64,000 nt of DNA from sequence record NC_054914.1. One strand, 5' to 3'. Positions within the stretch are counted from its first letter, which is position 1. Every line of letters begins with the position of its first letter. The stretch is from Escherichia phage vB_EcoM-fFiEco06. Below are positions 48,667 to 50,369 of this stretch, piece by piece. The notes under the pieces were generated by a model. The model saw only the letters and a program-made list of their open reading frames with translations, made no database searches and was not told the DNA's origin. Position numbers and translations under genes: made by a program.

Positions 48667-48685
48667 GGGGACCTCTAGGGTCCCC
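48667..48685 (-). terminator. GGGGACC-(5 nt)-GGTCCCC hairpin + U-tract downstream of gene 32
   Basis: 7-bp stem followed by TTTTTA on minus strand. Confidence 0.75.
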
Positions 48686-48707: not shown

Positions 48708-49616
48708 TTAAAGGTCATTCAAAAGGTCATCTAGGTCCGTGTCATCAGCACTAGATGAACTGCCAGAGCTTGAGCTCATAAAATCATCTTCAGTTTTTGT
48801 ATTGAAGTCATCAACATTGAATGCATCCAAATCATCAGCAACTTTATCAGCTTTCTTAGCAGCAGTTGCAGCAGCACCGCCCATCACAGCAGTTCCCATA
48901 ACTTGACCGAATTTAGTGCTCAGTTCTTCAAACGATTTGAATTTATCTTTAGAAGTCATTTCAGAAAGGTCAACCATTTGTTCGAACAGTTCTTTCTGGA
49001 AAGATTCATCGTCAATGTTTGGAATCGCAGATTGATTCAGGAATTTAGATTCGTCGTAGTTACTAAATCCAGAAACCTGTTTAACTTTCAGTACAAAGTT
49101 AGCACCTTCCCACGGACAAGTTACATCAACCGGAGTTTCACCCATTTCAACATCAACCGCAATCATCGCGTTGATTTTATCCCAGATTTTCTTACCGAAA
49201 CGATATTTAAATACTTTACCTTCATTTTCTGGAGCAGCTGGGTCTTTTACAACAAGAATATTAGCCCAGTAAGAAGTTTTACGTTTAACAAGACTGTACT
49301 CTTTATTGTCAGTGTTGTACAGATCATTTTTACTGATGTACTGACATACTGGACAAGAATCGTAATCACCGTGGGTAGATGAACAGTTTTCAATATACCA
49401 TTTACCATTTTTCTTGAAACCGTGATTTACAAGAATTGCGAACGGTGCTTGTTCATCATTTTTAGACGGAAGAAAACGAATTACTGCTTGACCGTTACCC
49501 GCATTGTCGAGTTTCAGTTTCCACTCGCCTTTATCTTCAGAAGAAAAACCACCTTTATTTCCAGCCAGTTTAGCCATTTGTGCAGCGAGTTCAGCAGTAG
49601 ATTTACGTTTAAACAT
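48708..49616 (-). CDS. 32: single-stranded DNA-binding protein gp32
   Basis: Sequence recognisable as T4 gp32 ([17 protein letters not shown]...; acidic Ser-rich C-terminus). Confidence 0.95.
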
Positions 49617-49682
49617 TTTTATTTCCTTTTTAATTTAATTAACAGTTGGTGCTATGACGATGTATGACCTCATAGCTGGTCA
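49617..49682 (-). promoter_or_regulatory. gene 32 autoregulatory translational operator: A/U-rich leader (UUAAUUAAAUUAAAAAGGAAAUAAAAAUG) preceded by an RNA pseudoknot
   Basis: Minus-strand leader read directly; pseudoknot stems UGACC/GGUCA and GCUAUGA/UCAUAGC. Confidence 0.75.
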
Positions 49683-49699
49683 GTGAGATAATTATAATC

Positions 49700-49707
49700 T
49701 ATTTATA
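49700..49707 (-). promoter_or_regulatory. late promoter TATAAATA (minus strand) upstream of gene 32 leader
   Basis: Exact TATTTATA on plus strand. Confidence 0.55.
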
Positions 49708-49715
49708 ATAAGCAA

Positions 49716-50369
49716 TTAATACTTGCAAGATTTCACAGTTTCAATGAAAACATTTTTAGCTTTCTGTGAATCAATATTTAAAATTTTTCTATAAGCCTTT
49801 AACTTTATAGAATAATTATTCCAGACTAAATTATCAGTCTGTTCATCATGTTTATCAATTATATTTAAAAACGAATCAAGCAAGATAAACGTTTCAAACG
49901 AAATTATATTCGATTGAAGTAGTTTAAAAATATAACTTGATTGAACTTTTGGATTATACTCAAAGATTTCTTTAAAAGCAGAAACTTCAACTTTCTTACT
50001 AAAATAATAAATGTTGCGAATATCTTCTTCAAACTTAAATTTAATTTGCTTTAAGCGTCCGATATATTCACGATAAAACACAAGTGCATCAGCGTCAGAG
50101 ATGTCGCCAATCCAAGCATCCTGGTTAGCAACAAGATTGCTTATAAAGATTAAAGCAAGTTCCTTTAATTTATATTTTTCTGATAACTTCTGGAAAAAAT
50201 ACTTATCCCTTCGCTTTTGATAAGCGGCATCAGACACCCGCATGCACCAATTATACTTAATAACATCATACTTTCCATTCATATGTTGTTTTATCATTAA
50301 GTATAATTTATAAACTGATTTACCATCAATGTATCTTTCACCACCAGCAGGCATGCGGAGTTTAATCAT
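49716..50369 (-). CDS. 59: helicase loader gp59 (217 aa)
   Basis: Sequence recognisable as T4 gp59 (MIKLRMPAGGERYIDGKSVYKLY...). Confidence 0.92.
   Translation of the reverse strand: MIKLRMPAGGERYIDGKSVYKLYLMIKQHMNGKYDVIKYNWCMRVSDAAYQKRRDKYFFQKLSEKYKLKELALIFISNLVANQDAWIGDISDADALVFYREYIGRLKQIKFKFEEDIRNIYYFSKKVEVSAFKEIFEYNPKVQSSYIFKLLQSNIISFETFILLDSFLNIIDKHDEQTDNLVWNNYSIKLKAYRKILNIDSQKAKNVFIETVKSCKY

Follow-up and report, generated by a model that had tools for sequence, protein, structure and literature searches.

The closest described systems are the gene 32 leaders of phages T4, T2/T6 and RB69. Binding of gp32 to a pseudoknot in the leader and repression of its own mRNA have been demonstrated experimentally in T4 and RB69 (PMC535899; PMC3014915), the experiments on autogenous repression of RB69 gene 32 being described in PMC535899. 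The leaders of T4, T2 and RB69 combine this pseudoknot with an A/U-rich tract that extends over the ribosome binding site (PMC3014915, PMC535899). In T4, repression needs both the knot and the UUAAA/UAAA repeats of the tract, and the gp32 footprints begin at the knot (PMC535899). RNase E cleaves every gene 32 mRNA species at -71, immediately 5' to the knot (PMC3014915). Both PMC3014915 and PMC5684407 credit the structure of the T2/T6 pseudoknot to Holland et al. 1999. The T2 RNA was solved by NMR (PDB 2TPK), and its sequence, its 12-bp joint helix and its loop L2, uacaucg, are given in PMC5684407. An autoregulatory 5'-leader pseudoknot governing translation initiation is also known from E. coli rpsO, the gene for ribosomal protein S15 (PMC3014915), which is unrelated to gene 32 in sequence and protein; according to a reference cited in PMC3014915, S15 traps the ribosome, whereas gp32 cooperatively coats the ribosome binding site.

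We analyzed a stretch of 64,000 nt (the window) from Escherichia phage vB_EcoM-fFiEco06 (NC_054914.1). Gene 32, which encodes both the repressor and the regulated product, lies on the minus strand at 48708..49616. The 302-aa gp32 was identified by Pfam PF08804 (E=3e-67), and 298 of its 302 residues (99%) are identical to T4 gp32; compared with T2 gp32, the identity is 99.5% over the first 200 residues. The determinants of cooperative nucleic-acid binding are kept, with the KRKST motif at residues 3-7, the zinc ligands His65, Cys78, Cys88 and Cys91 (window numbering) and the acidic C-terminal tail all intact. The differences from T4 gp32 are N18A, an extra Gly after G22 (at 23), T76N and N232S (T4 numbering). 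T76N adjoins the zinc ligand Cys77 (T4 numbering), and two of the four differences lie near residues 18-23, where the N-terminal segment ends. This segment (residues 1-21) has been linked to cooperative gp32-gp32 interactions (PMC535899).

The surroundings of gene 32 follow the canonical T4-type gene order. Directly upstream lies gene 59 for the helicase loader (49716..50369, minus strand; Pfam PF08993 and PF08994), and there is no segG between genes 59 and 32, where T4 has it. Further upstream follow gene 33, an 89-aa ORF in the place of dsbA in T4 and RB69, and a 310-aa ORF in the place of rnh in T4; frd.3 is located downstream of gene 32. A terminator-like hairpin, GGGGACC-CTAGA-GGTCCCC with a T run, was found 23 nt past the gene 32 stop (48667..48685, minus strand). 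It has seven pairs, six of them G-C, and continues into TTTTTATTT.

The leader of gene 32 had been read in the first-pass annotation as the known gp32 autoregulatory operator. Indeed, the minus strand from 49682 to 49614 reads UGACCAGCUAUGAGGUCAUACAUCGUCAUAGCACCAACUGUUAAUUAAAUUAAAAAGGAAAUAAAAAUG, every letter as quoted there, and ends at the gp32 AUG. Counted from the A of this AUG (49616-49614), the operator as a whole (49617..49682; all its parts are on the minus strand) extends from -66 to -1 and fits the operator description in PMC3014915. As expected for a T4-like gene 32 operator, it is the 5' leader immediately before the gp32 gene and begins with an H-type knot at its 5' edge, which has no junction between the stems and a loop 1 of one nucleotide. 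The knot spans -66 to -35, with a geometry (stem 1/loop 1/stem 2/junction/loop 2) of 5/1/7/0/7. Its stem 1 is formed by UGACC (49678..49682; -66..-62) and GGUCA (49665..49669; -53..-49), and two-sided changes occur at all five stem 1 pairs across the leaders compared below. Loop 1 is a single A (49677; -61); this base is invariant in all nine of the compact knots, and Acinetobacter phage ZZ1 has it as well. Stem 2 pairs GCUAUGA (49670..49676; -60..-54) with UCAUAGC (49651..49657; -41..-35); the 3' strands of both stems were identified by the knot finder and by covariation. Loop 2 (49658..49664; -48..-42) is the 7-nt UACAUCG, the T2-type loop.

The 34-nt tract 3' of the knot consists of 82% A+U. 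It contains the spacer ACCAACUGUU, which includes a conserved AACUGU unit (49642..49647; -31..-26), two tandem UUAAA units (49629..49638; -22..-13) and a further UAAA (-5..-2). The Shine-Dalgarno sequence AAGGA (49624..49628; -12..-8), which we assigned from the sequence with a spacing of 7 nt to the AUG, sits within the tract, directly 3' of the second UUAAA. As in the T4-like operator, the tract extends over the Shine-Dalgarno sequence and the AUG, and it is predicted to be unpaired.

The knot has the same sequence as nt 2-36 of the T2 construct 2TPK, which is 36 nt long, so that the two are identical over 35 of 36 nucleotides. The only difference is the first base, G in the construct and A in the window; we assume that this G was added for in vitro transcription. 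A stem 1 of six pairs in T2 is not supported, since C and U face each other beyond the fifth pair and the 12-bp joint helix described in PMC5684407 corresponds to 5+7 pairs. The position of the leader, the match of its knot to the solved T2 RNA and its fit to the literature bear out the earlier identification. We conclude with high confidence that the element represents the T2/T6-type version of the gene 32 autogenous translational operator, which would act by gp32 binding and spreading. As such, it is already known and of textbook status.

By analogy with the work on T4 and RB69, the gp32 of the window phage would bind the knot and repress its own mRNA in the following way. When gp32 is in excess over single-stranded DNA, it would bind the H-type knot with which the leader begins (-66..-35), and the knot would thereby serve as the nucleation site. 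Further gp32 monomers would then load cooperatively in the 3' direction from the knot along the unstructured tract ACCAACUGUUAAUUAAAUUAAAAAGGAAAUAAAA, and the resulting gp32 coat over the Shine-Dalgarno sequence and the AUG would block ribosome binding.

The mRNA on which gp32 would act appears to be generated by promoters and RNase E-type processing in the spacer between genes 59 and 32, which is 99 nt long. A T4-type late promoter consensus, TATAAATA, is present at 49700..49707 (minus strand; -91..-84). This octamer occurs 18 times in the window versus eight expected copies, and its promoter function here is putative; it was also found just upstream of the knot in RB69 and in the loci L019, L021 and L025 of our leader set. 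It is overlapped by a candidate MotA-type middle promoter (49691..49714, minus strand) consisting of a TGCTTA box, a 12-nt spacer and a perfect TATAAT; transcription from it would begin 2-3 nt before the knot. Since the window contains 28 matches to this pattern versus 14.3 expected, one match is weak evidence for a middle promoter. The spacer between the genes also holds AAUUAU (49688..49693, minus strand; -77..-72), a hexamer within which the RNase E site of T4 has been mapped, at -71. In T4, AAUUAU is located at -72..-67 and the knot starts at -67 (hand count). By comparison with T4, RNase E would cut in the AAUUAU of the window as well. Late and possibly middle transcription together with this motif would yield a monocistronic mRNA with its 5' end just upstream of the knot.

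Alternatively, the knot could mainly stabilise the unusually long-lived mRNA, as a compact fold that follows within a few nucleotides of the 5' end left by the upstream RNase E cut and protects it, with repression being exerted chiefly by the A/U tract. Among T4 mRNAs, that of gene 32 is the most stable, and its cleavage site borders the knot (PMC3014915); the AAUUAU context of this site is retained in the window. Furthermore, several lineages without the knot retain an A/U-rich tract with AACUGU units, which indicates that the knot is dispensable in evolution. Many T4-like lineages are without the knot, among them CC31-like phages, several Klebsiella-type loci, Proteus phiP4-3-like phages, Krischvirus, Aeh1 and Aes012, in agreement with published remarks on RB49 (PMC3014915, PMC535899), and none of 33 distinct leaders from distant loci (gp32 ~40% identical) contains a compact knot. 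A scan of viral contigs for the exact 15-mer ATGTTTAAACGTAAA gave mostly chance matches and 13 true gp32 starts; most of these were already in the leader set, and the scan contributed five more knot-less leaders. However, the knot and the UUAAA units are both essential for repression in T4, where the footprints begin at the knot (PMC535899). Besides, the stabilising and the repressing roles are compatible, so that stabilisation is more likely to be an added function than a replacement. We therefore regard a mainly stabilising knot as improbable and retain the operator that is nucleated at the knot as the preferred reading.

The first-pass annotation had described the leader as a two-stem pseudoknot followed by an unstructured A/U-rich tract and had proposed RNA structure prediction as a check. 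We found both elements. A finder that makes no requirement on the sequence returned as the best H-type knot UGACC/GGUCA and GCUAUGA/UCAUAGC with the single A, no junction and UACAUCG. ViennaRNA, which predicts nested structures only, recovered stem 2 and left -34..-1 unpaired in the minimum-free-energy and centroid folds. When the intergenic region was shuffled with its dinucleotides preserved, 70 of 2000 shuffles (3.5%) reached an equal score under lax loop limits, and the single leader sequence by itself is thus only moderately unusual under this geometry. With the compact geometry of the literature, 5+7 bp were reached by 12 of 5000 shuffles, although this geometry, which replaced the too permissive lax test, was picked with the answer known. 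These single-sequence statistics are modest. The decisive support for the knot comes from comparative evidence and from the identity to the solved T2 RNA.

A search of the region against Rfam 15 gave no family at or above the gathering threshold. Since Rfam 15 has no family for the gp32 operator, no curated model could confirm the element. The best match was DUF2815 RNA with 19.1 bits versus a threshold of 41.2 (E=0.81). This sub-threshold match covers 49670-49614 (minus strand) and is driven by UUAAAAAGGAAAUAA..AUG. DUF2815 is a different family of phage single-stranded-DNA-binding proteins (PMC5686142), and the resemblance could reflect a parallel autoregulatory leader or merely an A-rich ribosome binding site.

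For the comparative analysis, gene 32 leaders were gathered via the gp32 protein and not via the RNA. The compact knot exists in at least eight distinct sequence versions, found in the T2-type and T4-type leaders, in RB69/Mosigvirus, in Dhakavirus and in the loci L019, L030, L021, L022 and L025. RB69 resembles the window in its compact knot geometry, in the late-promoter octamer just upstream and in the lack of segG, but its stem 1 is AUACC/GGUAU and its stem 2 GCUACGA/UCGUAGC, with a compensatory change from U-A to C-G, and its A/U tract is longer and of other sequence. In a plain MAFFT alignment of nine distinct leaders, all 81 of 81 cells were paired and five pairs showed two-sided changes, whereas slid controls were paired to 25-53%; as gaps broke the 3' strand of stem 1, the countable pairs in this alignment are those of stem 2 and the two inner pairs of stem 1. 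In an alignment of 12 leaders that included Acinetobacter phages, two-sided changes were present in 10 of 12 pairs, the covariation score was 0.884 compared with 0.26 in shuffles, and slid controls fell to 25-52% paired. The proportion of paired cells in this alignment, 96.5%, is biased upward by its N-padded, structure-guided construction, and the alignment is informative through its two-sided changes and its slid controls. Stem 2 was 100% paired in the 12 distinct leaders, with two-sided changes in five of its seven pairs. The leader set shows the knot to be kept by compensatory change across several genera.

Extended H-type knots were found in the Acinetobacter phages ZZ1 (L207) and Stupor (L210) and in L028/L029. 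Their stem 1 has 7-8 bp and their loop 2 is long, while stem 2 again has 7 bp and starts with GG; the knots of Stupor and L028 have a 5-nt loop 1 and a 4-nt junction. In ZZ1 and Stupor, AUCACCAACUGUUA follows stem 2, as in the window leader. Through these Acinetobacter phage knots, the operator architecture extends to Twarogvirinae.

The covariation also decides on the possibility that the pairing arose by chance in A/T-rich intergenic DNA and is shared through close kinship only. Most Tequatrovirus leaders are indeed nearly identical among themselves, and equally good knots were not rare among the shuffles with lax loop limits. Nevertheless, the two-sided compensatory changes across genera, the pairing of stem 2 in every sequence, the loss of pairing in the slid controls and the NMR evidence that the T2 RNA is a pseudoknot speak against it, and chance pairing is ruled out in practice by the covariation in both alignments and the 2TPK structure. 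It is hardly credible, too, that the sequence acts as DNA and not as RNA, e.g., as a promoter element or a segG homing-linked recognition sequence: in T4, the insertion point of segG coincides with the 5' edge of the knot, and the segG stop codon falls within stem 2 (PMC535899), but the covariation preserves Watson-Crick and G-U pairing, which is a signature of RNA structure as G-U is meaningful only in RNA, and the promoters lie upstream of the knot, none inside.

It had been suggested in the first-pass annotation that a comparison with the published T4 and T2 gene 32 leaders could place the phage as T2-like or T4-like. The window leader aligns with both and is the T2 version, not the T4 version: over 201 nt, it is 100% identical to two T2 records, which like the window have no segG. 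All characteristics of the T2/T6 subtype were found, i.e., the 5-bp stem 1 UGACC/GGUCA, the loop 1 A, the 7-bp stem 2, the loop 2 UACAUCG, and gene 59 abutting the leader without an intervening segG. T4 shares with the window the architecture and position of the element (the knot starts at -67 in T4 and at -66 here), and the two do not differ in stem 2, in loop 1, in the spacer ACCAACUGUU, in the Shine-Dalgarno sequence or in the first codons. The differences lie in stem 1, loop 2, the repeats and segG. The T4 leader consists of UGCC, A, GCUAUGA, GGUA, AAGUG and UCAUAGC followed by three UUAAA units, whereas the window has two units. Stem 1 of T4 (UGCC/GGUA) has 4 bp with one G-U pair; in the window, each strand has one additional base, the helix remains in register, and the G-U pair of T4 is replaced by G-C plus A-U. 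Evaluated as a nested hairpin, stem 1 has -6.1 kcal/mol in the window versus -3.1 in T4. Loop 2 has 7 nt in the window and 5 nt (AAGUG) in T4. Finally, the segG frame of T4 overlaps the 5' part of the knot and ends at the UGA within stem 2 (GCUAUGA), whereas the window has no segG. When T4 (L001 2910-2928) and the window (49670-49690) were compared, homology started only at CCAGCUAUGAGG.

Thus, the elements of gene 32 autoregulation are intact in the window, and the 59-32 junction has the segG-free T2 form, the allele targeted by SegG-driven marker exclusion when T4 is crossed with T2 (PMC535899). The leader separates the two types, as the earlier reading had anticipated, and it types the 59-32 locus; it does not place the phage itself, since the T2-type knot is present in 355 phage records. 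The T4-type knot is present in 141, and T2-type leaders predominate among sequenced Tequatrovirus. A T2-type leader therefore does not identify T2, and the marker types the locus and not the phage. In its 6-kb neighbourhood, the window matches Escherichia phage vB_EcoM-fHoEco02 with 100% identity and the other records listed with 98.6-99.2%; the 15 best-matching records listed for this neighbourhood do not include T2. The record LR597657.1, named 'Escherichia phage T4_ev240', has a T2-type knot, so that phage names are an unreliable guide to the allele here. Among the T2-type matches listed, no annotated feature covers the knot, and most of the T4-type matches listed lie under segG or a homing-endonuclease gene.

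The leaders differ in their number of UUAAA copies. The window and T2 have two, and W143 and L007 likewise have two, together with a T4-type knot; T4 has three and Yersinia phage PYPS2T has four. Since phages with a T4-type knot have two, three or four copies, the shorter A/U tract is not T2-specific. Mosigvirus mogra has one more AAUUAAAUA-type unit than RB69. This variation resembles that of short tandem repeats, so that the distance between the knot and the AUG shifts in steps of ~5 nt. The leader set thus provides useful annotations rather than a discovery, including an operator length that steps by the 5-nt UUAAA.

The AACUGU unit in the spacer just 3' of the knot is the sole point possibly worth an experiment. 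Of 43 distinct gp32 leaders, 37 contain it within -60..-1, with a density of 21.7 per kb compared with 0.52 per kb in the window background (~42x). These leaders belong to Tequatrovirus, Mosigvirus, Dhakavirus, Acinetobacter and Aeromonas phages, and the unit is also present in L009-L018, L023, L025, L026, L196 and L212. It was absent from the 33 distant leaders (gp32 ~40% identical). No description of it was found in the text of PMC535899 or in the searchable text of the literature covered, and the observation may be new. It is conceivable, though unlikely, that AACUGU is an undescribed core recognition element of the gp32 operator that replaces the knot as the nucleation site in knot-less lineages or binds another factor. 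AACUGU is more widely kept than the knot. The knot-less lineages have two or three copies of it, some of them within the 3' end of gene 59, and the copies in the gene 59 end are in three different codon phases (read by eye), suggesting selection at the nucleotide level.
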